A stretch of 64,000 nucleotides of DNA. Origin: a virus. Below, one piece after another: positions 871 through 40,816 of the stretch (the first letter of the stretch is position 1; each line of letters opens with the position of its first letter). A program made the position numbers and the translations under genes. The stretch lies in IMG/VR virus record IMGVR_UViG_3300025693_000002. One strand, given 5' to 3'. The notes below the pieces were generated by a model that was given only the letters and a program-made list of their open reading frames with translations, had not been told where the DNA came from and did no database searches.

Positions 871-2160
871 TTACTCACCCGGCGCACGGTGAAAGTACAC
901 GCCACCTACTACTGCCTGATCCGTCACCTGAACGTATTCCATGTTTACGGACTTCGTTTCGGTGTTGACGTGACAGACGTTGAAACCCATCGACCAGAAC
1001 TCGCCTTCGGTGTACGAAGCGCGCAGACGGTGGCCGCAACCAAGCTGCATCCAGGGGTAGGAGCCGCGGAGCGCATGCTTGCAGTGATCGACCTTCCAAG
1101 AGTGGTGATGCCCGTTCCAGCCAGGCAGACCCCACGACTTTGCATGCGGGTGGTGATGCACCAGAACCGCCTCGTCGTAGATCACATAGGACTTGAGAAC
1201 TTCTTTGGCTTGATCCTGCTTTGACCAGGCAGCGAGGTCGGCCCGGGCGATGTAGTTGACCTCGAACTGATCCAGGCCCAGCAGCTTCGGTACAGTCAGG
1301 CCCAGCAGATCACCCAGAATGGCTTTCATGGCCGGCGTTGCATCAGCCAAGTGTCGCAGCAGGCGGAACTCGTGGTTGCCTTCAACGAAGTCGATCTGAG
1401 CGTTGGGGCAGGCTTCTCGCAGCGGACGCAGAATGTGGTCGTGAACGAAGCGGATTCGGCCTACCACGTCCCACTCTCGCGGATCGATGGTGTACTTGCC
1501 GAACTCTGGCAGGTCGAAGATATCTCCACCCAGGTTGATCACGTCCGGCTGGATCATGCGGCAGCTCTCGATCAGCACTCGCAGGTAGAACCGATCGATC
1601 TCCTCGTCGTGAAGATCGGAACAGCCTACGATAACCTTCATCTTCTTGCCGGAATCTCGAATGTACCGGGTGTCCAGCTCGCGACGGTCGTTGAACGATC
1701 GGTAGTGATCCGCTGATACATGCTTGGCTAACTGACGCTCAATCGCATGTTGGTTGCGATTCATTTCCAAGCCAGCTTGGCGCCTGAACTCAAGAAAGGT
1801 GCCGAAGTGACGATTCCAGGTCGAGTCTGACAAACCAGTCTCGTCGCGGAACCGCTGACGGGTGATCTGCTTGCTGGGATCGGCATGCCAGATGGCCTGC
1901 ATTTTTGAAATAAGCTCTTGCGGTGTCATATCCGCATACTGGTTCTGCATCTCCGGCAGCGTCGAACGCTCTTGCGGAGCCAGTGTGCGATCAATCAAAG
2001 CGGGCAGTTTCTCTCCGGCTGACAGTCGCTTGCGGTGAAGTGATGCGCGGTTTTTGATCGTCTGATACGCCAAGCCGGTGTGAACAGCCAGGTCGTTCAG
2101 GGTTGGAAAGGTCGCGCTGTTATTCCACAGCGACGCAAACTGCTGGTCAGTGAGTGCCAT
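871..2160 (-). CDS. calcineurin-like metallophosphoesterase with N-terminal HTH-like region
   Basis: Ordered MPE motifs GCSDLHD, GGDIFD and GNHEF. The N-terminal ~60 aa looks like a DNA-binding helix-turn-helix. Confidence 0.65.
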   Translation of the reverse strand: MALTDQQFASLWNNSATFPTLNDLAVHTGLAYQTIKNRASLHRKRLSAGEKLPALIDRTLAPQERSTLPEMQNQYADMTPQELISKMQAIWHADPSKQITRQRFRDETGLSDSTWNRHFGTFLEFRRQAGLEMNRNQHAIERQLAKHVSADHYRSFNDRRELDTRYIRDSGKKMKVIVGCSDLHDEEIDRFYLRVLIESCRMIQPDVINLGGDIFDLPEFGKYTIDPREWDVVGRIRFVHDHILRPLREACPNAQIDFVEGNHEFRLLRHLADATPAMKAILGDLLGLTVPKLLGLDQFEVNYIARADLAAWSKQDQAKEVLKSYVIYDEAVLVHHHPHAKSWGLPGWNGHHHSWKVDHCKHALRGSYPWMQLGCGHRLRASYTEGEFWSMGFNVCHVNTETKSVNMEYVQVTDQAVVGGVYFHRAPGE

Positions 2161-2632
2161 TCAGAAGCTCTACCAGTTTGTTGTGCTCGATCATCAAGGC
2201 GTTGTAGCGCTCAATTACATCGAGGTTGTGGTCGTTGAAGTCTGTTGCGGAATAACCGGAAGGGGTTCGGCCTTCTTCAACAGTTGAGGGGGAATCTGAG
2301 GACAGCTCGGGGCGACGTGCGGCGTTGAACATGCTGATAACGCCAGTGCTAGGCCCGCAATACAAATCTTTGTCAGGCTCGACATAGACTTTTACCTGCT
2401 CGCGGATGGTTTGAATTTTCGTCGAGGATTCATTTAGCTGCTTGGCGAGGTCTTCTTGAGCGAAGATGGCGGCCTTGAGTTGCAGTTCAACCTGAAACTG
2501 CTTTTCTACGGCCGCCTGCAGCCTCTCGACTTCGTACTTGTCCTTAGCGCCCTGGAAGCCCAGGTAAAACGCTCCACCCAAGGCTGCGATCAGTCCTGCG
2601 GACTTGAGTAGAAGAAGGACTTTTTCAATCAT
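2147..2632 (-). CDS. Rz: i-spanin (Rz-like)
   Basis: N-terminal TM helix (LLLLKSAGLIAALGGAFYLGF), long coiled coil and Pro-rich C-terminus. ATGA overlap with the holin stop. Contains an embedded +1-frame lipoprotein ORF. Confidence 0.8.
   Translation of the reverse strand: MIEKVLLLLKSAGLIAALGGAFYLGFQGAKDKYEVERLQAAVEKQFQVELQLKAAIFAQEDLAKQLNESSTKIQTIREQVKVYVEPDKDLYCGPSTGVISMFNAARRPELSSDSPSTVEEGRTPSGYSATDFNDHNLDVIERYNALMIEHNKLVELLNGTH
2215..2385 (-). CDS. Rz1: o-spanin (Rz1-like) embedded in Rz
   Basis: Hand translation of the +1 frame gives MSSLTKICIAGLALALSAC-STPHVAPSCPQIPPQLLKKAEPLPVIPQQTSTTTTSM. Lipobox LSAC, Pro-rich 56-aa product, entirely inside the i-spanin gene. It falls below the 60-aa ORF-track cutoff. 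Confidence 0.8.
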   Translation of the reverse strand: MSSLTKICIAGLALALSACSTPHVAPSCPQIPPQLLKKAEPLPVIPQQTSTTTTSM

Positions 2633-2958
2633 CAGTTAGGCCACTTCTCAGCGGCCGGCGCTGGACTGTCTCTGTTCAAAGCGCTGTCAAACGCATAACC
2701 AATGGTGAAAACCGTAATCAACCCTTGAATGCTGTCTGGTATCTGCCCAGCGACGAACATGGTTATAACGGTGCCGAGCACCGCGAGGGTGGCTTGCGCC
2801 GTGTTTCGCCAGGTTCCATTGGCAAACAGATACTCGGTCAAGGTGTTGTGAGTCTCGCCGCGTAACCACTTCTTGACGTAGTGACAAGTCATGCCCAGCA
2901 AGGCGAAGAAGACGGTGATCGCGAGATTTACCCAGTTCAGTGATTGCAGCGCTTCCAT
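2632..2958 (-). CDS. holin (three predicted TM helices)
   Basis: 108 aa starting at MEALQSLNW, with three hydrophobic helices and a charged C-terminus. Sits between endolysin and spanins. ORF-track start 3063 trimmed to ATG 2958 (GAGG 6 nt upstream; no overlap with endolysin). Confidence 0.75.
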   Translation of the reverse strand: MEALQSLNWVNLAITVFFALLGMTCHYVKKWLRGETHNTLTEYLFANGTWRNTAQATLAVLGTVITMFVAGQIPDSIQGLITVFTIGYAFDSALNRDSPAPAAEKWPN

Positions 2959-2966
2959 ATCAACCT

Positions 2967-3428
2967 CTATGCATTGACGTAAACGGTCTTGCCGTTTTGC
3001 TTGATTGCTTTCAAGAACTGCTTGCGCAGACCTTTGCTCCCTGGCAGGCCGATGTGAACCCACCGACCAAACTCATGAATTACTTGGTCAACGGGCAGGT
3101 CAGTCATCCGTTCTTTGATAAAGGCAAAGAGGTCGTCCACAGAAACGCCGGAGGCGTTGATATCCGCAGCGAGACCGCTCATGTGAACCGACGTACTGGA
3201 GCCGCCAACCTTGCGGTTCAGGGCTGGCGATCGGTAGCCGGAGCTGATGTTGATCGAGACCTTTCGTCCGTAGTGTTCGCACAGCCGATCACGCAGGGTC
3301 TGCAGCCACTCTGCGAGCTTGCGAACATTAGGCATAAGGGTTTGAGGAACGCTGTTGCGCAGACCGTTTCTCTCGGCGGTTTCAGAGCGTTCAAATTCGG
3401 AAAGGGAGAAATTGGTGGTCAGTTTCAC
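2967..3428 (-). CDS. endolysin, peptidase M15 (VanY / L-Ala-D-Glu peptidase-like)
   Basis: SGYRSPALN, SVHMSGLAADI and WVHIG zinc-ligand pattern of the M15 family. Start set to GTG 3428, which forms a GTGA overlap with the stop of the upstream gene. Confidence 0.8.
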   Translation of the reverse strand: MKLTTNFSLSEFERSETAERNGLRNSVPQTLMPNVRKLAEWLQTLRDRLCEHYGRKVSINISSGYRSPALNRKVGGSSTSVHMSGLAADINASGVSVDDLFAFIKERMTDLPVDQVIHEFGRWVHIGLPGSKGLRKQFLKAIKQNGKTVYVNA

Positions 3429-3883
3429 TGCCCGCCCTCCATCGCTTGAGCAGTGACCTGGCGATCCACTGGTGACTTTTGAACAATTGCCGGCAGCTGA
3501 GCGCCAGAGCCGAGCCAACCAACGAAGCCGATTGTTGCGAGCGCCTTGATGATGTTCGACCAGACGGTGCGGTTTACCGTCCGGTAGGTGCTGACAATCT
3601 CGTTGAGCTGGCGGTGCTGTTGGACATGATCATCGCGACTCATGCCCAGGTTTTCCCGGATAGAAAGATCAATTCGCTCCCGCAGCCGCATCTCCATTTT
3701 CTGCATGTTGCTATTCAGCTCTGCAGAAATTTTGCTCGCCATCAGCTCAGCCGATGACTCGGAGATTTGGCGCATTTCGGATCGAAGAGCTTCGGTTTGC
3801 ATGCCGACGGCTCGCGACGCTGCTGCTTCGGCAATGACTTGCATCACTTGGATGTCCCTCTCATTCAAGGGTGTAGCGGTCAT
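3425..3883 (-). CDS. hypothetical protein with C-terminal TM helix, first gene of the lysis cassette
   Basis: Helical N-terminal part plus hydrophobic WSNIIKALATIGFVGWLGSG. Translationally coupled to the endolysin. Preceded by palindrome motif 3938..3953. Function (antiholin or lysis regulator) is only guessed. Confidence 0.5.
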   Translation of the reverse strand: MTATPLNERDIQVMQVIAEAAASRAVGMQTEALRSEMRQISESSAELMASKISAELNSNMQKMEMRLRERIDLSIRENLGMSRDDHVQQHRQLNEIVSTYRTVNRTVWSNIIKALATIGFVGWLGSGAQLPAIVQKSPVDRQVTAQAMEGGQ

Positions 3884-3937
3884 AGCTCTTCGGCACTCTC
3901 TTGCGAAGTTGGCTTAATAGGGCTTTATTTTATCATT

Positions 3938-3953
3938 AACTAACCAGTTAGTG
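3938..3953. promoter_or_regulatory. ACTAAC/GTTAGT palindrome motif
   Basis: AACTAAC-CA-GTTAGTG, 55-70 nt upstream of the lysis cassette. Followed by AT-rich TAATGAT on the sense strand. Confidence 0.5.
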
Positions 3954-4119
3954 ATATTGCCTAGCGAGAATTTCCCCTGATTCGATTGATCTGCTTCGAC
4001 GGGTTCAAAATTGATACGCAGGGACGCGAGATATCGCGCTGGTGCAACGCTCGCTTGTTTTCGCTACCCGAATCAATGTGAAAGCGAAAAGAGCAGCAGC
4101 GAGCGTTTAAGCGGCTGGC

Positions 4120-5064
4120 TTAGACGTAGCCGTTCACCGTCCAATCAACGATTCGCTCAGCGATGGCGGCGGGGTTTCTCACCGCCTGGTTCAAGAAAAC
4201 CCTCAGCTGGTCTCCGTCCCCGAATGTACTCAGCTGCACCTTGACGATCTGGTGTTTTGCGAAAAACTCGATCCGGCGCTTGAACGTGTAGTCTACATCG
4301 CCCAGAGGGAATGACCCGACGAAGGCGGTGCCCATCTTGTCATTGATGCCATGCTTCATCAGAACTCGGGTGAAGTTCTCGTAACTGCAATCCTGACGGT
4401 AACGACCATCTTCTCCGAGCGACCCTATTGCGTACTGCGTGTAGTGACCAACACTGTCAAAATAGCCTTCCGGGACTCTCGCTGTGATGACGGACGGATT
4501 GTTTACCGTTCGACCAACCGCTGTCGCGAGCAGTTCTTGAACCTTCATTCCGACATGCTTTGCTCTTGCTTGAACCAAACCTTTGGGCAGGTCGAAACTG
4601 ATTTCTCGCGCAAGCCCCTGGATGCCGTTAAACGGTTTCAGGTTCGACAAGTCCATCGGACCGGCCGGTCTGATTCTCGGGTAGGGCGTGTTCGTCTTGA
4701 AAGTTGGCGTCTTGCCGTGCTTTAGCAAATCCATTACCGCGTGGCGAATCTGAATCATCGACCAACCATCGATCAGATCGTGTCGAGTGAAAAGCTCAAA
4801 CCCATCCTCAGCCTGCACCGCTTTTACGCAGGTAGGGGCGGAAACGTGCTGCTCTGCCCTGCCCTGACCTGTATGTACGCGGTCAGCCAGGACGATCTCC
4901 CCGTTTTCGATCCTTCCGCGCATCAGAGGGGCGTGATGACTGACCTCTTGGACTGCATCGACGAACTCTGCCCAGCTCACCGGAAACTTGAAGTTCAAAC
5001 TGGTGCCGAACGTCATGTCGGCGCCTTTGACTGAAAACGCCTTTTGTATCGGGTGTAACTTCAT
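4120..5064 (-). CDS. HxxxDG-motif acyltransferase-like protein (condensation / WS-DGAT / CAT superfamily-like)
   Basis: TRHDLIDGWS motif about 95 aa from the N-terminus in a soluble 314-aa protein. ATGA overlap with the upstream desaturase. ORF-track start 5112 trimmed to ATG 5064. Confidence 0.5.
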   Translation of the reverse strand: MKLHPIQKAFSVKGADMTFGTSLNFKFPVSWAEFVDAVQEVSHHAPLMRGRIENGEIVLADRVHTGQGRAEQHVSAPTCVKAVQAEDGFELFTRHDLIDGWSMIQIRHAVMDLLKHGKTPTFKTNTPYPRIRPAGPMDLSNLKPFNGIQGLAREISFDLPKGLVQARAKHVGMKVQELLATAVGRTVNNPSVITARVPEGYFDSVGHYTQYAIGSLGEDGRYRQDCSYENFTRVLMKHGINDKMGTAFVGSFPLGDVDYTFKRRIEFFAKHQIVKVQLSTFGDGDQLRVFLNQAVRNPAAIAERIVDWTVNGYV

Positions 5065-5819
5065 CGCTTGATTAGCCTTACGAACCAGGAAGCCGGGTCG
5101 AACTCCCACCACTGATGCGCGAAGTTCCAGCCATTCGGCTTTTTATGGTGATTGTTGTGATAACCCTCGCCACCGAAAAGAACGCCAAGCAGCCAGACGT
5201 TGCGCGATTTGTCGCCAACATCGTAGGTCTGATAGCCGAATTTAGGGTTGTGAGGAATGATGACCAGAATGTACTTGCGCAACAGCTGCATCACAGAGAC
5301 TGGGATTGCCCACAGGTAGATCAGCGCCTCTGGCGATATCGCCAGCAGAGTTAGCGCAGTCAGAATTGGGTAGGCGATATACAGCTCATGCACCCGCTTC
5401 ATAGTTGGCGTGAGAAAGAACCGCTTCTTGGCGCTGACAGTCAGCTTAACGCCAGCCAATTTTGTCGCTGGAAACACCACGTCTTTGTAATGGGTGTGCG
5501 GGTCTTGATCGGTGTCAGAGTGAAGGTGATGCTGCAGGTGAATGGCTGCGAACGCCCCTGGATGACCAGACAACGAAGCGCAGCCTGCAAACAGCATGAC
5601 TTCTTCCCAGAACCGATTGGTCTGGAAGGACTTATGGCAGAAGTAGCGATGCCAGCCTACTGTCAGGCCGACGATCCAGTAGAACTGGAAGGCGAGGAAC
5701 CCACCGACGATCCATCCGATGCTCGGCGGGAACAAGAACGCCCCCACCAAGCCGACCAGTGCTGCCGTTTGAATCATCCGCGAGTTGCGAAAGTGAGACG
5801 CTTCAAATGGCTTCTTCAT
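5061..5819 (-). CDS. membrane fatty-acid desaturase (Delta9 / stearoyl-CoA desaturase family), copy 2
   Basis: His boxes HRYFCH, HLQHHLHSDTDQDPH and GEGYHNNHH, with hydrophobic segments between them. ATGA overlaps on both sides. Start trimmed to ATG 5819. Confidence 0.85.
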   Translation of the reverse strand: MKKPFEASHFRNSRMIQTAALVGLVGAFLFPPSIGWIVGGFLAFQFYWIVGLTVGWHRYFCHKSFQTNRFWEEVMLFAGCASLSGHPGAFAAIHLQHHLHSDTDQDPHTHYKDVVFPATKLAGVKLTVSAKKRFFLTPTMKRVHELYIAYPILTALTLLAISPEALIYLWAIPVSVMQLLRKYILVIIPHNPKFGYQTYDVGDKSRNVWLLGVLFGGEGYHNNHHKKPNGWNFAHQWWEFDPASWFVRLIKR

Positions 5820-6604
5820 TGGCGAATCGCCCGGATGAACCACCACGTCGGGTCGATCTCCCACCAACGCTCACCCATCTTGGCTCTGAACGGGTAGGCA
5901 TGATGGTTGTTATGCCACCCTTCCCCGCCCGAGATCAGCGAAGCGAACCACCAGTTGTTACTCGTATCCGGGATTTCATGGTTGCGATAGCCAAGTTTTC
6001 GCAGATGCCCCGTCCACAAGATGAACCGCAAAGTGATCTGGCTTAGTCCCGCGGGGACTAAGTAGAACCAGAAAAGCGCTGCAAGCGGGTTAATTGCAAA
6101 AAGAACGCCGATTGAAACTACAACAACCGCGTGCGCAATCACGAAGCCCCAGTACCAACGCAGCGTGATTCGGTGCAGAGAGTCTTTGGTCGCAACACGC
6201 AGGAACTTGGCCGTTACCCTGGTCGTATGATCAATCGCAGAGCCACCCCCGATAGCGAATCGGGCGTAAGGGTCGTCTGGCTTATCTGATCGCAGGTGGT
6301 GTCGAACATGCGCCTCTGCCCAGATGCAAGGAGGTCCAACTAGGCTGACCATGCACAAGTGCGCCATCACCCATTGCCAGAATCGATTGCACTTGAATGC
6401 ACCGTGCGAGAAGTAACGGTGGGCGCCGGCGCTGATTCCGACGATGTTGAACACCTGCCAGATCACAAGGGCGTGAATCCAGTAGGCGCCTGCCCAGTAC
6501 AGATGTGGGGCAAAAAACATGAGACTTACCCCGATCAAGGCGCAGGCCATGACCAGGGAGTTAGCCGCGACCATCGTCGGGTTGGTTGCTTTCAGTAGGG
6601 CCAT
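5816..6604 (-). CDS. membrane fatty-acid desaturase (Delta9 / stearoyl-CoA desaturase family), copy 1
   Basis: His boxes HRYFSH, HVRHHLRSDKPDDP and GEGWHNNHH. Multiple TM helices. Confidence 0.85.
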   Translation of the reverse strand: MALLKATNPTMVAANSLVMACALIGVSLMFFAPHLYWAGAYWIHALVIWQVFNIVGISAGAHRYFSHGAFKCNRFWQWVMAHLCMVSLVGPPCIWAEAHVRHHLRSDKPDDPYARFAIGGGSAIDHTTRVTAKFLRVATKDSLHRITLRWYWGFVIAHAVVVVSIGVLFAINPLAALFWFYLVPAGLSQITLRFILWTGHLRKLGYRNHEIPDTSNNWWFASLISGGEGWHNNHHAYPFRAKMGERWWEIDPTWWFIRAIRQ

Positions 6605-6606
6605 TG

Positions 6607-7266
6607 TTAGCTCCAGTAGGCGTCACTGAGGATCGGGATAGTCTTATACTTGGCTTCTGGCACGTTCTCGTCTCGTACCGCGCTGATAAATTCTTCTGGC
6701 GTCACCTGGTAGACGTACATCAGAAAAGCGTCGCCAGTGCCGTTATTGGTGAACGTGTAGTCTTTGGCTTGGCCTAACTTCAAATACTTGAACAAGTCGA
6801 AGGTGTTCTCATCGACCGTCACCTGGCCCTCCAGCACAAACACGTTTCGCTCCAGCGCGCGGTTCGGTATGGTCACAGACTGGCCCGGGGCAAGCGGGAA
6901 GTTCTGCTGCAGATAGATGCCCGAAGCTGGGTCGCGCAGAGTTACGCACCAGAATTCGTTGTACTCATCCAGGCCAGTGAAGCTGGCCCCACCCTGAGTG
7001 GCCCATCGGCCGGCGACCATTTCGTCTCCACGATATCGGTCAAACGGAGTGCTGTTGCGCGGTTTGACCGTGAAGCTGCCTCGAACGAAAGCGTTCGCTC
7101 GATAGGTGTTTACCCCAAGAGTTTCTTCTGGAGCCGGCAGCCTGCAGACCTCGGGCAGCGTCGCGTCAACGATGACGTACTGGTTCTGCCCGAGAGTCAG
7201 ACGAGAGATAACGAACTTGTTAGCCGCAAGTTTTACCGTCCAGGGGTTTGTGATGTGTTCACGCAT
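6607..7266 (-). CDS. hypothetical protein (beta-rich, possibly cupin-like)
   Basis: 219-aa ORF with a 2-nt gap to the desaturase start and a 1-nt overlap upstream. No diagnostic motif. Confidence 0.5.
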   Translation of the reverse strand: MREHITNPWTVKLAANKFVISRLTLGQNQYVIVDATLPEVCRLPAPEETLGVNTYRANAFVRGSFTVKPRNSTPFDRYRGDEMVAGRWATQGGASFTGLDEYNEFWCVTLRDPASGIYLQQNFPLAPGQSVTIPNRALERNVFVLEGQVTVDENTFDLFKYLKLGQAKDYTFTNNGTGDAFLMYVYQVTPEEFISAVRDENVPEAKYKTIPILSDAYWS

Positions 7267-7808
7267 TACTCAAGCTCCACTACAATGTTTGCCCCAGAAA
7301 CGAGAAGGCTGTAGATTCCACTAACCGTTGTTGTTGAAACGCTGTAAAAGTGAGATTTTGACGGAGTAAAAGCGGCAGCCGACCAAGCCCCTAAAGTATG
7401 TTGAACTCCGTTTATTCTCACCTTTGTGTACGGAGGATCGCCGTTTTCGTAAACGTAAGCCAGGACGATAGTCAGCTCGTTTACTGAGTTTGAACGACCT
7501 CTGAACTGTTCAATCGTGTGCCCGTCTTTTGCCACTTTGTTGTCTATAGAACCTATGTTTATGGTTCTCTCCCAAGGCGCAACGTCGCCCCTTGTGTATC
7601 CGCGCCAAATCGGATTACTACCGCCTTGACCAGAAACGATGTTATGAACAACGCCAGATGATTTACCTCGCAACGCAGCGAGAGAGATTGGCCCGGAAGC
7701 TATCCCGGCCAAAGATCGGACCATCGGGTCGTTGAGCGAAATAGCGCCTGTCACGCCAAGCTCGATGCGAACATCGTTGAGCGAAATAGCGCCTGTTGGG
7801 GTGGCCAT
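7266..7808 (-). CDS. hypothetical protein with duplicated GAISLND N-terminal motif
   Basis: 180-aa ORF, tightly coupled to its neighbours. Near-identical ~22-nt direct repeat at about 7731 and 7776 encodes TGAISLND twice. Confidence 0.5.
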   Translation of the reverse strand: MATPTGAISLNDVRIELGVTGAISLNDPMVRSLAGIASGPISLAALRGKSSGVVHNIVSGQGGSNPIWRGYTRGDVAPWERTINIGSIDNKVAKDGHTIEQFRGRSNSVNELTIVLAYVYENGDPPYTKVRINGVQHTLGAWSAAAFTPSKSHFYSVSTTTVSGIYSLLVSGANIVVELE

Positions 7809-8029
7809 TAAATTACCTCCCCTTCGACAACCGCTATCGCCGCGCTTTGATTAAGGGCGCCATTCAGGCGGGCGTGAGCGAAGCCTGCGAGGAACGCTTT
7901 GGCCAGGTCTGGAAACTCAGCTATGTTCTCCGGCAGATCGCACTTCAGCGTGGTGATCTGGTCTTCACCGAACGTCACAACAAACCGACCGTCCTCCAGG
8001 ACGGTCAGCACTTCTTTAATCAGAGCCAT
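7808..8029 (-). CDS. hypothetical protein
   Basis: 73-aa ORF exactly filling the gap between neighbours (1-nt overlaps). Confidence 0.45.
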   Translation of the reverse strand: MALIKEVLTVLEDGRFVVTFGEDQITTLKCDLPENIAEFPDLAKAFLAGFAHARLNGALNQSAAIAVVEGEVI

Positions 8030-9453
8030 TAAGCAATACCTCGATTTTCCAGAGCCTCGACCTTGCTCGACAGCTCCTTGACAGCCTCAACCAAAAGCCC
8101 GACCAAGTTGCCGTAAGCAACACTCAAGTAACCCTCTTTCTCGTCTCCGGTAACCGCCTCCGGGATTGCGGCTTTAACTTCCTGAGCGATCAAGCCCGTT
8201 TGGCGAGCGCCAGATTTGATACGAGTAAACTTCACGCCGCGCATCTTCTTAACTGTCGCCAGCGCATTCTCAATAACCTCGATATCGGTCTTGAGGCGTC
8301 TGTCGGATGTAATGCCAACGTCATCCTGTGCGTATAGCGCTCCACCAACGCCTACCCCGCCTGCAATCTTCAAAGCGCCGGTAGTCGGGCTTGTGGATGC
8401 AGTCGTGCTGGAAACAATCAGGTCGCCAGAAACCGTGCCGCCGGCCAGAGGTAGGTAATCGTGAGCGTGAGATTCGGCGGCAGCCCCGATCTCGGCGAGG
8501 GTCCAGGAGACGTTGCTGGTGCCATTGAACGATTTGCCAGTGGAACCAATAGTCAGGGTACGGGCATTCGCCAAAGCAGTAGCTGAACCGGCATTGCCTG
8601 TGGTGTCCTGATTGAACGTGGGCCAGGTTTGCCCGGCGGCAAAAGTAATTGCGCCAGTCATAGTTCCACCTGCCAACGGCAGCTTGGTTGCATCCTCCAC
8701 CGTAATGTTCGCACTGCCGTCAAAGCCCACGCCGTTAATGGTGCGGGCAGTGGCCAGCTTGGTCGCTGTCGCTGCGTTTCCTGTGGTGTCCTGATTGAAT
8801 GTCGGCCAGGTCTGTCCAGCGGCAAAAGTAATTGCACCAGTCATGGTGCCACCGGCCAGGGGCAGCTTGGTTGCATCTGCTACGGTAATGTTCGCTGTAC
8901 CGTTAAAGCTCACACCATTGATGGTACGGGCCGTCTGCAACCGAGTTGCTGTAGCTGCGTTTCCAGTAGTGCTCTGATTGAACGTGGGCCAGGTTTGCCC
9001 GGCTGCAAAAGTAATTGCGCCGGTCATGGTGCCACCAGCGAGGGGTAGTGCCCCCACGTCTGCAGCAGTAAACGTAATGTTGGCATTGGTGCCAGTGGAG
9101 GAGGCAATGGTGCGGGTGTTACCAGTACCAGTGACACTGAGGTTCGTTGCTACGTTTACCTGCGCACCCGCCTGGATACCGTCCAGTTTGGTCTTCTCAG
9201 CTGAACCAGCCCACCACGCGGCAATCGCCTGACGGACTCGCTGAGCCGTCCACTTACGGGACGTAGTGGCAGTGCCCGCCTCGGCTTCGGCCTGAGTAAC
9301 CTCAGAGGCAGTCCACTCCCGAGCATCAGTGAAGCGGGCGTCAGTGAGAAGCGCCCGCTCGTCGAGTGAGTCCTCCACGTTCTTGCCTGCTACCGTCAGG
9401 CTTCTGGTTACCGTCAGGTCACCGTAAACTCGGGTCGATCCAAGATCAGCCAT
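8029..9453 (-). CDS. tail fibre with C-terminal intramolecular chaperone (peptidase S74-like) domain
   Basis: C-terminus SDRRLKTDIEVIENALATVKKMRGVKFTRI...GLIAQEVKAAIPEAV...YGNLVGLLVEAVKEL matches S74 autoproteolytic chaperone domains. N-terminal TDAREWTASEVTQAEAEAGT..RKWTAQRVRQAI adaptor motif. Three 61-aa tandem repeats. Confidence 0.85.
   Translation of the reverse strand: MADLGSTRVYGDLTVTRSLTVAGKNVEDSLDERALLTDARFTDAREWTASEVTQAEAEAGTATTSRKWTAQRVRQAIAAWWAGSAEKTKLDGIQAGAQVNVATNLSVTGTGNTRTIASSTGTNANITFTAADVGALPLAGGTMTGAITFAAGQTWPTFNQSTTGNAATATRLQTARTINGVSFNGTANITVADATKLPLAGGTMTGAITFAAGQTWPTFNQDTTGNAATATKLATARTINGVGFDGSANITVEDATKLPLAGGTMTGAITFAAGQTWPTFNQDTTGNAGSATALANARTLTIGSTGKSFNGTSNVSWTLAEIGAAAESHAHDYLPLAGGTVSGDLIVSSTTASTSPTTGALKIAGGVGVGGALYAQDDVGITSDRRLKTDIEVIENALATVKKMRGVKFTRIKSGARQTGLIAQEVKAAIPEAVTGDEKEGYLSVAYGNLVGLLVEAVKELSSKVEALENRGIA
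8500..9050. repeat. three tandem 183-bp (61-aa) repeats inside the S74 fibre gene
   Basis: LPLAGGTMTGAITFAAGQTWPTFNQ.TTGNA..AT.L..ART..G..F.G..N occurs three times. Antisense ORFs at 8612, 8795 and 8978 are spaced exactly 183 nt apart. Confidence 0.9.
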
Positions 9454-39596: not shown

Positions 39597-39935
39597 TCAG
39601 TCCTGAGCTACCAGCTCGACAATATCGTCGTCGCCAATCAGCTCGTCGTAGGTTGCCGGCGCCTTGCGAGGGGCTAGAATCCGGGTGGCGAGTGGTGTCG
39701 GGGCGATCACCTGCTTCATTCGACCGTCGCGCAGCTCCTTGCCTTCCCGTGTAATCCACCCCTGATTGACCAGGATGCGGATCGAGCACATCAGCGATTC
39801 CCTGGATGTTTCGTAGGACAGGCGGCCCAGAATCTGCTGGTAGTCGCACCAGCCGACCCGGTTGCCCTTCACGTCCAGGTTTCCAGTCATGACCACGCGC
39901 ATCAGTTCGCGCTGTTTTGTTGTCAGTGGCTTCAT
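39597..39935 (-). CDS. winged-helix DNA-binding protein (candidate regulator)
   Basis: 112 aa. CDYQQILGRLSYETSRESLMCSIRILVNQGWITREGKE resembles a MarR/wHTH recognition helix plus wing. Confidence 0.45.
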   Translation of the reverse strand: MKPLTTKQRELMRVVMTGNLDVKGNRVGWCDYQQILGRLSYETSRESLMCSIRILVNQGWITREGKELRDGRMKQVIAPTPLATRILAPRKAPATYDELIGDDDIVELVAQD

Positions 39936-40816
39936 AGCAAATCCAGTCTCAGAGGTTGGTTCGGCAGCTGCAGGTCAAACGCAGAAAGAGGCAGACGATC
40001 CGGTATCTCGCGGCCCAGGTCTGGGTTCTCCCAAATCCCGTAAACCGGGCTGGCAAACACCAGCTGCTGAAACTCGCGGATCAGCTGCTCTGCTGGCATG
40101 GCGTCTACTCGCCCGGTGCCGGCGTGAAGATTCGAGCCTGTCTTTTCGCGGCTCGAATGTCGGTAGTAAAACTCGCGGATGTCTTTTAGCATTTTTGATT
40201 TATGGCTCTTGCTGAAGCCATTTAGCTCTTCCAGGACAGCCTGGTGATCCGCGGGGTGAGCCTTGAACCGCTGACGCATGAATTTCAGGCCCATTTCGTA
40301 GGCCGCCGCCGACTTCAAATGCGCATGCTTGAACCCTGATTTCACGTCGAACGGGTTGAACTTGGACATAGAGGACTGAATCTCGACAAACCGGAAGCCT
40401 TCCATGCGCATCGCCAGGTTCACCATTCGATAACTGACGCCGACGCCGCGGTACATGGTGTCGGTTACGATGCGTGACGCGCGGCGAAAGTTTGCATTCA
40501 AGAAGGTTGCACGATGGACGTTGGTAAAGTGCGAGTCCTGGCCAGGCTTGAGCTTCGGAAACACTTGATGACGAGGGCCGAGCAGCAGCGACACCGAACT
40601 CAGTACGACGACGCCCACCAGTTCACCTCGCCCAGTCACGCAGCGCCAGTAGTGAGGCCCGGCCGGGAGACTTTCAGCCTTGTAGTGCAGATCGTGCAGC
40701 GCATCCCAGTCGGCCTTGGTGCCGCGCTCCACCCACATATCGTCCATCAGGGCGAAACGAGGTTCACAGACCCGGCGCTCCACCAAAATGTCGTCGGTGT
40801 CGATCAGCGCGGTCAT
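39932..40816 (-). CDS. GNAT-fold acyltransferase-like protein
   Basis: ELVGVVVLS...RASRIVTDTMYRGVGVSYRMVNLAMRMEGFRFVE resembles GNAT beta4-alphaA (R/Q-x-x-G-x-G/A). Followed by a ~130-aa C-terminal extension. Confidence 0.45.
   Translation of the reverse strand: MTALIDTDDILVERRVCEPRFALMDDMWVERGTKADWDALHDLHYKAESLPAGPHYWRCVTGRGELVGVVVLSSVSLLLGPRHQVFPKLKPGQDSHFTNVHRATFLNANFRRASRIVTDTMYRGVGVSYRMVNLAMRMEGFRFVEIQSSMSKFNPFDVKSGFKHAHLKSAAAYEMGLKFMRQRFKAHPADHQAVLEELNGFSKSHKSKMLKDIREFYYRHSSREKTGSNLHAGTGRVDAMPAEQLIREFQQLVFASPVYGIWENPDLGREIPDRLPLSAFDLQLPNQPLRLDLL

Follow-up and report, generated by a model that had tools for sequence, protein, structure and literature searches.

The DNA analysed here, IMG/VR record IMGVR_UViG_3300025693_000002, is a window of 64,000 nt (the whole stretch under study) that forms part of a 108-kb phage contig (JGI 3300008252, Ga0105357_10000005) and carries nearly all of its genes on the minus strand. 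Near the start of the window, three consecutive minus-strand genes, designated Des1, Des2 and ORFC, encode two proteins related to membrane fatty acid desaturases and one soluble protein predicted to adopt a condensation-domain fold. Their open reading frames (ORFs) are the following.

5816..6604, minus strand: Des1, 262 aa, integral-membrane di-iron desaturase family, 'first desaturase' type of SCD1/DesC (Pfam PF00487)
5061..5819, minus strand: Des2, 252 aa counted from its ATG, paralogue of Des1 (Pfam PF00487)
4120..5064, minus strand: ORFC, 314 aa counted from its ATG, soluble and standalone, predicted condensation-domain fold of the chloramphenicol acetyltransferase (CAT)-like kind, with the motif H95-x3-D99-G100-W101

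An initial annotation, made from the letters of the sequence, had drawn attention to these genes, and the ORF lengths, histidine-box and HxxxDG motifs that it quoted are all present as described. So are the ATGA overlaps that it reported: on the minus strand, Des1 runs into Des2 at ...CGCCAATGAAGAAG..., and Des2 into ORFC at ...AAGCGATGAAGTTA....

Both Des1 and Des2 match the FA_desaturase family of Pfam (PF00487, gathering score 29.7), with 60.8 bits (E 2.2e-16) and 55.4 bits (E 9.7e-15), respectively. In a search of PDB sequences, the mammalian SCD1 entries 4ymk/4zyo were the sole matches for either protein, and the alignment covers residues 11-247 of Des2, nearly its full length. The histidine boxes read HRYFSH / HVRHH / GEGWHNNHH in Des1 and HRYFCH / HLQHH / GEGYHNNHH in Des2. 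When 18 sequences were aligned (seven of Des1 type, five of Des2 type and six cellular ones of Delta9 type), H62, H67, H99, H102, H103, H200, H231, H234 and H235 (Des1 numbering) were invariant in all 18. Eight of these histidines belong to the boxes and the ninth, H200, precedes box 3; D-x3-DP and GEG-HNNHH elements are also conserved. Moreover, Kyte-Doolittle windows delineate hydrophobic segments at residues 17-35, 43-61, 153-171 and 174-192 of Des1, a two-plus-two pattern, with equivalent broad hydrophobic regions in Des2. The Pfam scores, the nine histidines and the hydropathy uphold the view of the initial annotation that the first two genes encode paralogous membrane proteins of the desaturase family. 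Des1 and Des2 are very probably two non-redundant, catalytically intact-looking members of the membrane di-iron 'first desaturase' group (SCD1/DesC); their Delta9 regiospecificity is putative.

Des1 orthologues, 43-65% identical, are found in all related loci, and Des2 is 43-81% identical to its own orthologues versus 30-39% to Des1-type proteins. Since the two proteins share only 31% identity (E 1e-40) and yet have separate orthologues in every related locus, their duplication is old, with both copies retained. A recent tandem duplication was considered and rejected, each copy having its own orthologues in distant phages. The close relatives of Des1 (at least 43% identity) form about 30 clusters, all metagenomic and none named from an isolate genome; beyond them, identity falls to 38% or less and the matches are cellular proteins named 'stearoyl-CoA / acyl-lipid 9-desaturase'. 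The only PHROGs match for the desaturases is phrog_35201, of unknown function, and the DesA equivalog of NCBIfam gives Des1 and Des2 only 61-62 bits against a cut-off of 400 bits.

ORFC is devoid of any transmembrane-like segment (grand average of hydropathy -0.25) and has no match in Pfam, PHROG, NCBIfam or PADLOC. Its family is small: four clusters of homologues were found in 5.8 billion proteins, and an exhaustive hidden Markov model (HMM) search of 1.84 billion proteins gave about ten representatives, the sources being all jgi, lgn or ena, and it is on these searches that the absence from isolate genomes rests. The next HMM match after the family is a 5447-aa nonribosomal peptide synthetase (NRPS; E 2.3e-5), aligned on the HHAVFDGWS motif of a condensation (C) domain. 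Comparison of ORFC with the five C domains of this NRPS using hhalign gave P 6.7e-5 over 35 columns. A profile built from 14 ORFC sequences retrieved only three NRPS C domains from the PDB sequences (bacitracin synthase 3, McyA and McyB, E 0.012-0.083), all of which align to ORFC on one strand-motif-helix element; a profile of 4 sequences retrieved nothing. The ORFC motif reads TRHDLIDGWS, in which H95, D99 and G100 are invariant in 14 relatives down to 22% identity and W101 is nearly invariant.

An AlphaFold model of ORFC (AF2, 11 sequences) reached a predicted local distance difference test score (pLDDT) of 91.5 and a predicted TM-score (pTM) of 0.90. A previous model, built from 4 sequences, had a low pLDDT of 54, yet it too matched only C-family structures. 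Searched against PDB with Foldseek, the better model gave 232 matches at E<=1e-3, the best 50 of which are condensation-superfamily enzymes with the exception of one BAHD transferase, COSY. These 50 include C, epimerization (E), cyclization (Cy) and dehydrating domains as well as the standalone proteins VibH, SgcC5, CmnI and AzeD. The top match is AzeD (8s6l, E 1.8e-13, TMq 0.69); TM-scores to canonical C, Cy and E domains are 0.61-0.66, and sequence identity is 9-14% to all of them, AzeD included. In the model, strand 88-93 precedes the motif and helix 100-116 follows it, an arrangement shared with C domains. Together, the Foldseek result and the C-domain profile matches place ORFC inside the HxxxD acyltransferase superfamily, to which the initial annotation had assigned it. 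On the strength of the predicted structure, ORFC is very probably a compact standalone member of the condensation-domain fold, with its His/Asp/Gly motif intact.

Members of the CAT family proper consist of one lobe, are about 220 aa long and carry their catalytic histidine near the C-terminus. This family was considered for ORFC and rejected, given that there is no Pfam CAT match, that the histidine stands at residue 95 of 314 and that the model has two lobes. In BFVD, a collection of predicted viral structures, the ORFC model matched a single protein at E<=1e-3, that of a giant algal virus, and no phage protein. A tblastn search of the INPHARED phage records gave no relative of ORFC.

Loci related to the trio were recovered via relatives of ORFC, Des1 and p219, an upstream gene described below, and are numbered here from L001. 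Des1, Des2 and ORFC occur together in the window and in L001, L002, L006, L008-L013, L015 and L016. L001 and L002 are short contigs. L006 (a 76-kb contig) and L008 (108 kb) have the lysis cassette, the phosphoesterase, PhoH and Hfq in common with the window, while L009-L012 and L016, IMG/VR or Logan contigs 102-270 kb long, have different neighbours. Altogether, the trio is found in at least three phage backbones, namely the Nickievirus-like one of about 108 kb, the 254-270-kb contigs and others. In the L010/L011 pair, for which synonymous sites are unsaturated, the ratio of non-synonymous to synonymous substitutions (dN/dS) is 0.08 for Des1, 0.03 for Des2 and 0.04 for ORFC; it ranges from 0.03 to 0.14 in other locus pairs. 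Purifying selection on all three genes is strong. The Pfam scores, the identity between the paralogues, an HxxxDG motif invariant down to 22% identity and this selection argue that the trio is no chance assembly; it is one conserved, translationally coupled unit that has moved between several phage backbones. Compared with the near-identical L006, L007 (2258-3242) has an ORFC interrupted by a frameshift, for which either an assembly error or natural inactivation may be responsible.

Some loci carry additional paralogues. In L013 (10461-11234) and L015 (10452-11231), a third one, Des3, directly follows ORFC; its boxes read HRWCTH / HYAHH / HNNHH, and its identity to Des1 and Des2 amounts to 25-30%. 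The Des3-bearing variant is common, given that 63 blocks of the collection contain the Des1 protein of L013 (P0028), and one sample name for the L013/L015-type variant looks like a sewage survey. L017 (7669-13026 of a 13.8-kb contig, Logan SRR33871315) is rearranged: behind an S74 fibre come a Des2-like gene, ORFC, a Des3-like gene and Des4, whose third histidine box is QHTYHH. Des4 is followed by genes for a 191-aa protein, a small Cupin_2 protein, an Asp_Arg_Hydrox protein (PF05118, E 2e-27) and a homologue of pantoate-beta-alanine ligase (PanC; Pantoate_ligase, E 1e-66). PF05118 includes LpxO and OlsC, which hydroxylate lipid A and ornithine lipids.

Several known systems bear comparison with this unit. 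The viral fatty acid desaturases (vFADs) of cyanophages are single genes of cyanomyophages. They were described as one fatty acid desaturase gene with two genotypes and were experimentally shown to be Delta9 lipid desaturases (Roitman et al., 2018; PMC5776448). Like them, Des1 and Des2 are phage-encoded membrane proteins of the Delta9 family, presumably working on host electron donors. In contrast to them, two to four divergent paralogues are here coupled to a condensation-fold enzyme behind tail fibres, and the backbones are those of Pseudomonas-type siphophages and of 254-270-kb phages. A tblastn search with Des1 against the 50,697 phage records of INPHARED matched three records, with 26-27% identity and no cyanophage among them: two are of Acinetobacter phage MD-2021a and one of Pelagibacter phage Mosig, each with a single annotated desaturase gene. 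With SCD1 and DesC (4ymk, 4zyo; DesC1/DesC2), Des1 and Des2 share the HX4H, HX2HH and HX2HH boxes, the ninth histidine, the GEGWHNNHH element and, as far as hydropathy suggests, a four-transmembrane layout; they differ from these cellular enzymes in being only about 26-33% identical to them and 252-262 aa long. Pairs of paralogues with differing positional specificity are known, as illustrated by cyanobacterial DesC1/DesC2.

As to ORFC, the standalone C proteins AzeD (8s6l), VibH (1l5a), SgcC5 (4znm), CmnI (9uay) and PapA5 (1q9j) have the same free-standing, two-lobed CAT-like fold, with the catalytic histidine of the (H)HxxxDG motif at the lobe interface. The first histidine is absent from both AzeD and ORFC. 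However, ORFC has 314 aa rather than about 420-450, and its partners are membrane desaturases instead of NRPS, polyketide synthase or carrier proteins. The wax ester synthase/diacylglycerol acyltransferases (WS/DGAT) are lipid-directed, acyl-CoA-dependent acyltransferases of about 450-480 aa with an HHxxxDG active site. They would be the most natural functional analogue of ORFC if its substrate were a lipid, but ORFC is much shorter, has no Pfam WS/DGAT match and finds no WS/DGAT structure among its best 50 fold matches. A literature search returned no description of the trio, nor of a phage desaturase associated with a condensation domain, nor of jumbo-phage or tail-fibre versions. The combination had struck the initial annotation as unfamiliar, an impression with which this search and those of INPHARED and BFVD agree. 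Three features appear new: the combination of a condensation-fold enzyme with two to four diverged desaturase paralogues, a minimal family of the C fold restricted to phages, and the fixed position behind the fibre in several phage lineages. The kinds of enzyme that compose the unit are already known, and no new mechanism is demonstrated.

On the minus strand, the trio ends a series that comprises genes for a 904-aa fibre-like protein, a 124-aa protein and a 474-aa S74 fibre, then p73, p180 and p219, and finally Des1, Des2 and ORFC. The four genes directly upstream of the trio are the following.

8029..9453, minus strand: tail fibre, 474 aa, with a C-terminal Peptidase_S74 chaperone domain (PF13884, E 7e-16; many PHROG tail-fibre families)
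7808..8029, minus strand: p73, small conserved protein between the fibre and p180, with homologues in L001 (59%) and L006 (45%)
7266..7808, minus strand: p180, 180 aa, matching phrog_26817 over residues 4-60 only
6607..7266, minus strand: p219, 219 aa, orphan, with 18 unnamed clusters among 5.8 billion proteins

TAATG overlaps join the fibre to p73, p73 to p180 and p180 to p219, and a 2-nt spacer separates p219 from Des1. An S74 fibre lies upstream of the module in 11 of the 11 loci with enough upstream DNA, along with small p180-like and p73-like genes; genes of the size of p73 occupy the equivalent position in L013, L015 and L017. By eye, three tandem units of about 60 aa can be recognised in the 474-aa fibre (LPLAGGTMTGAITFAAGQTWPTFNQ.TTGNAATAT.L.TARTINGV.F.G.ANITV.DATK), and such units are also present in the L008 and L006 fibres. 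About 55 N-terminal residues of p180 are 44-65% identical in L009-L013 and L015, and the remainder of the protein is unalignable. This N-terminus contains a short internal GAISLND repeat (GAISLNDVRIELGVTGAISLND) and is kept across very different phages, unlike the C-terminal two-thirds. Because its N-terminus is conserved and its C-terminus variable, p180 is likely a fibre-attached or host-range protein.

The protein p219 has no match in PDB or PHROGs. Matches to Pirin_C cupins, below threshold, were obtained for six of seven members, and the C-terminal half is possibly cupin-like; the family has several invariant arginines and no conserved histidine. Homologues of p219 precede Des1 in L001, L002, L006/7, L009-L013 and L015-L017 but not in L008, where a 185-aa gene stands before Des1 in its place (hhalign probability to p219 <1%). 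Between L010 and L011, p219 is 74% identical, with a synonymous divergence (dS) of 1.26, whereas the trio is 96-98% identical, with a dS of 0.26-0.32. This difference places a recombination boundary between p219 and Des1. The two tightly coupled ORFs upstream of Des1 had been proposed as possible parts of the module. For p219, the proposal stands insofar as it co-occurs with the trio in almost all loci, but not as to common descent, since it is replaced in L008 and has a different history in L010/L011. For these reasons p219 probably lies outside the enzyme unit, and p219 and p180 are tentatively assigned to the fibre set.

Downstream of ORFC, the minus strand continues with a 236-bp gap, the lysis cassette, a metallophosphoesterase gene and PhoH, and features of this side are as follows.

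3884..4119, no strand assigned: non-coding gap of 236 bp between ORFC and the lysis cassette, the minus strand having no ORF of at least 50 aa
2147..3883, minus strand: lysis cassette (152-aa protein, M15 endolysin, holin-like protein with two transmembrane segments, spanin-like protein), conserved in L006 and L008
2967-3518, minus strand: M15 endolysin (PF08291, E 2e-20; phrog_894 endolysin)
2632-3063, minus strand: holin-like protein, recognised by its two transmembrane segments
2147-2632, minus strand: 161-aa spanin-like protein, recognised by its N-terminal transmembrane segment
2215-2385, minus strand: embedded 56-aa ORF in another frame with a lipobox (LALALSAC in its translation)
871-2160, minus strand: metallophosphoesterase, 429 aa, 80% identical in L006 and L008

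The 161-aa protein and the embedded lipobox ORF look like an i-spanin/o-spanin pair. With the S74 fibre at 8029-9453 and the lysis genes at 2147-3883, the trio does lie at the end of the fibre genes and before the lysis cassette, where it had been located at the outset. Extra genes stand at the position of the gap in two relatives, two in L006 and one in L008.

Elsewhere in the window, PHROGs matches identify a terminase, a portal, a scaffold and a major head protein, together with several tail proteins of very large size. Four siphophages of Pseudomonas syringae of about 112 kb, namely nickie, phiK7B1, ZY21 and hairong, have portals 67-70% identical to this one, and 21 of the 30 records matched by fragments of a 1400-aa tail protein are Pseudomonas phages. 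From these two comparisons, we infer a Nickievirus-like siphophage with a Pseudomonas-like host. The best cultured matches of the metallophosphoesterase lie outside Nickievirus, in Bordetella, Roseobacter, Stenotrophomonas and Xanthomonas phages, and the backbone is therefore mosaic. With a G+C content of 0.54, the module does not differ from the remaining window, and a DNA similarity search with positions 3900-7900 against the 50,697 phage records gave no match. An Hfq-family gene follows PhoH on the same contig, just beyond the window start (L005:15952-16281), and is also present in L006 and L008. At the other end of the window, a joint Pfam scan of 44 ORFs (38404-63948), early or accessory genes among them, matched an Acb2/Tad1 hairpin domain, Antirestriction, two ParB_N, TerB, DUF4262, a crAss001_48-related protein and a DEAD/ResIII helicase. 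The Acb2/Tad1 hairpin domain is that of the anti-CBASS/anti-Thoeris sponge family. An ABC-transporter-type ATPase is encoded at 39932-40816 (phrog_886).

Taken together, these data lead us to propose, with a probability of about 0.57, that the region is a phage-borne cassette for the tailoring of lipid acyl chains, dependent on electron and acyl donors of the host. Judging from gene order only, the trio would be expressed late, co-transcribed with the structural genes. In the inner membrane, the desaturase paralogues would each oxidise a different position or a different substrate among the host acyl chains, with O2 and with electrons donated by the host. ORFC, with His95 as a general base, might then take an acyl group from a pantetheine thioester, either acyl-acyl carrier protein or acyl-CoA of the host, and pass it to an acceptor with a hydroxyl or amine, or else move acyl groups from lipid to lipid; acyl transfer by ORFC is given even odds. 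The end product would be an unsaturated, re-tailored lipid of the envelope, formed while virions assemble and ahead of lysis. Among 44 other ORFs of the window, Pfam detected no domain of a ferredoxin, carrier protein, acyl-CoA ligase or phosphopantetheinyl transferase, nor was a cognate reductase gene seen, which points to host dependence. A lipid or pantetheine context is suggested, circumstantially, by L017, in which an LpxO/OlsC-family hydroxylase and a PanC homologue are added beside the module. The biological pay-off could be in the membrane properties at lysis or in an envelope modification seen by the adjacent fibre; any particular role, taken singly, is unlikely.

A number of observations weigh against this proposal. 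On the desaturase side, Des1 and Des2 are short (252-262 aa) in comparison with typical cellular Delta9 enzymes, and a stretch following histidine box 2, present in five of the six aligned cellular homologues, is absent from both. In SCD1, the asparagine of an NxxxH element holds the water ligand of the second metal. The corresponding column, whose assignment is slightly uncertain owing to an alignment gap close by, has N in all six cellular homologues, L in Des1-type and V or I in Des2-type proteins. In view of the short length, the missing segment and the missing asparagine, substrate or regiochemistry may differ from those of cellular Delta9 enzymes. Moreover, Des2 has weak CrtR/CrtW matches in NCBIfam, and the desaturase family also includes hydroxylases, ketolases, alkene-forming and other oxidases.

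On the ORFC side, none of the 14 family members matches a Pfam acyltransferase model (PF00668, WS/DGAT and CAT included) even at E<=5, and ORFC is about 110 residues shorter than the matched C-fold proteins (314 versus about 420-450 aa). The first histidine of the HHxxxDG motif is replaced in the family by R, S, T, N or D. Proteins of the C fold also serve as epimerases or cyclases. Furthermore, AzeD, the structure nearest to ORFC, acts as a dehydratase rather than a transferase; in this standalone dehydrating C-family protein of P. aeruginosa, PHxxxDG replaces HHxxxDG (bioRxiv 10.64898/2026.07.17.738954). With a dehydratase as nearest fold, the fold alone does not fix the chemistry of ORFC. 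Finally, neither a donor carrier nor an acceptor for ORFC is identifiable in the window, the inspection for partner genes having covered 64 kb of the 108-kb genome, and a promoter and terminator scan of the 236-bp gap gave nothing above background (RNA fold z-score -0.69).

Other explanations can be weighed, in descending order of probability. Firstly, the module may be a plain membrane-fluidity set in which Des1 and Des2 are simple acyl-lipid Delta9 desaturases (specific, for example, for sn-1 and sn-2, like DesC1/DesC2) and ORFC is unrelated or accessory. The host membrane would thereby be kept fluid while host fatty-acid synthesis is shut off, which is how the vFADs, proven Delta9 desaturases, have been interpreted (PMC5776448). 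The histidine boxes of Des1 and Des2 are of Delta9 type, the JGI names of distant homologues include sn-1 and sn-2 specific 9-desaturases, and the nearest cultured relatives infect P. syringae, a host of cool environments, all of which would fit. However, ORFC is coupled to Des2, accompanies the desaturases in every locus found and is equally constrained. Furthermore, two to four distinct paralogues per locus, with an LpxO-type hydroxylase in L017, exceed the needs of fluidity, and the module sits beside tail fibres and not among metabolic genes. We consider this explanation unlikely.

Secondly, ORFC may be a non-canonical C-family enzyme (a dehydratase, isomerase, cyclase or AzeD-like protein) acting with oxidising desaturases in a small-molecule pathway, the product being a diffusible signal, toxin or volatile alkene derived from an unsaturated or hydroxylated fatty acid. 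The best fold match, AzeD, is indeed a standalone dehydratase likewise deprived of the first histidine of the motif, hydroxylation followed by dehydration is chemically plausible for such an enzyme pair, and the further oxygenase, cupin and ligase genes give L017 a cluster-like appearance. Nevertheless, the TM-scores to C, Cy and E domains are near that to AzeD, in such a way that the fold does not discriminate between chemistries, and the Asp and Gly of HxxxDG are invariant in the ORFC family, as they are in transferases. Nor is there any evident export, regulator or immunity gene near the module, and a pathway of this kind seems improbable.

Thirdly, the constant neighbourhood of the fibre raises the possibility of a receptor-linked function late in infection, the pathway rewriting an outer-envelope lipid (lipid A or an aminolipid) of the surface structure to which the neighbouring S74 fibre binds or, in a second version, attaching an acyl chain to a fibre-associated protein. 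Such a function would serve superinfection exclusion or prevent the progeny from being trapped on debris, and would be matched to, and inherited with, the fibre module. Accordingly, the trio follows an S74 fibre and p180/p73/p219-type genes in all 11 loci with upstream DNA, on at least three backbones, a further fibre-like gene comes after the module in L015, and L017 has a hydroxylase of the LpxO/OlsC family, whose members modify lipid A and ornithine lipids. Against this, the linkage may only reflect a hot-spot for cargo between fibre and lysis genes, as suggested by the unrelated extra genes of L006 and L008, and the recombination boundary between p219 and Des1 indicates that fibre set and enzymes are exchanged independently. 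No enzyme of the C fold is known to acylate proteins, which counts against lipidation. PADLOC gave no match, hence no evidence for a defence or anti-defence role. We regard this third explanation as doubtful at best.

Lastly, the genes could be decaying passengers or gene-calling artefacts, as the frameshift in ORFC of L007 and the absence of any named ORFC homologue from the protein searches might suggest, but dN/dS of 0.03-0.08, catalytic residues invariant down to 22% identity, a confident ORFC fold obtained from only 11 sequences and synteny kept in more than 12 loci effectively refute this.

The acyl-chain tailoring cassette that we favour would have several consequences for phage biology. 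Known phage lipid genes have so far been single desaturases interpreted as helpers of membrane fluidity, whereas the present unit would be a conserved multi-enzyme one for lipid tailoring, found in uncultured phages only. ORFC would represent an unrecognised minimal branch of the condensation-domain superfamily, a fold essentially absent from known phage proteins, and is of enzymological interest as its HxxxDG motif is intact in spite of some 110 residues fewer than in the C-fold matches from PDB. The short, diverged Des1 to Des4 are candidate enzymes of new regiochemistry, and in one of them the third box is QxxHH. Moreover, the constant linkage to the fibre raises the idea that editing of envelope lipids may be part of host-recognition biology. 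If the enzymes do act together, phages would be able to synthesise or remodel specific lipids, beyond the mere tuning of unsaturation.

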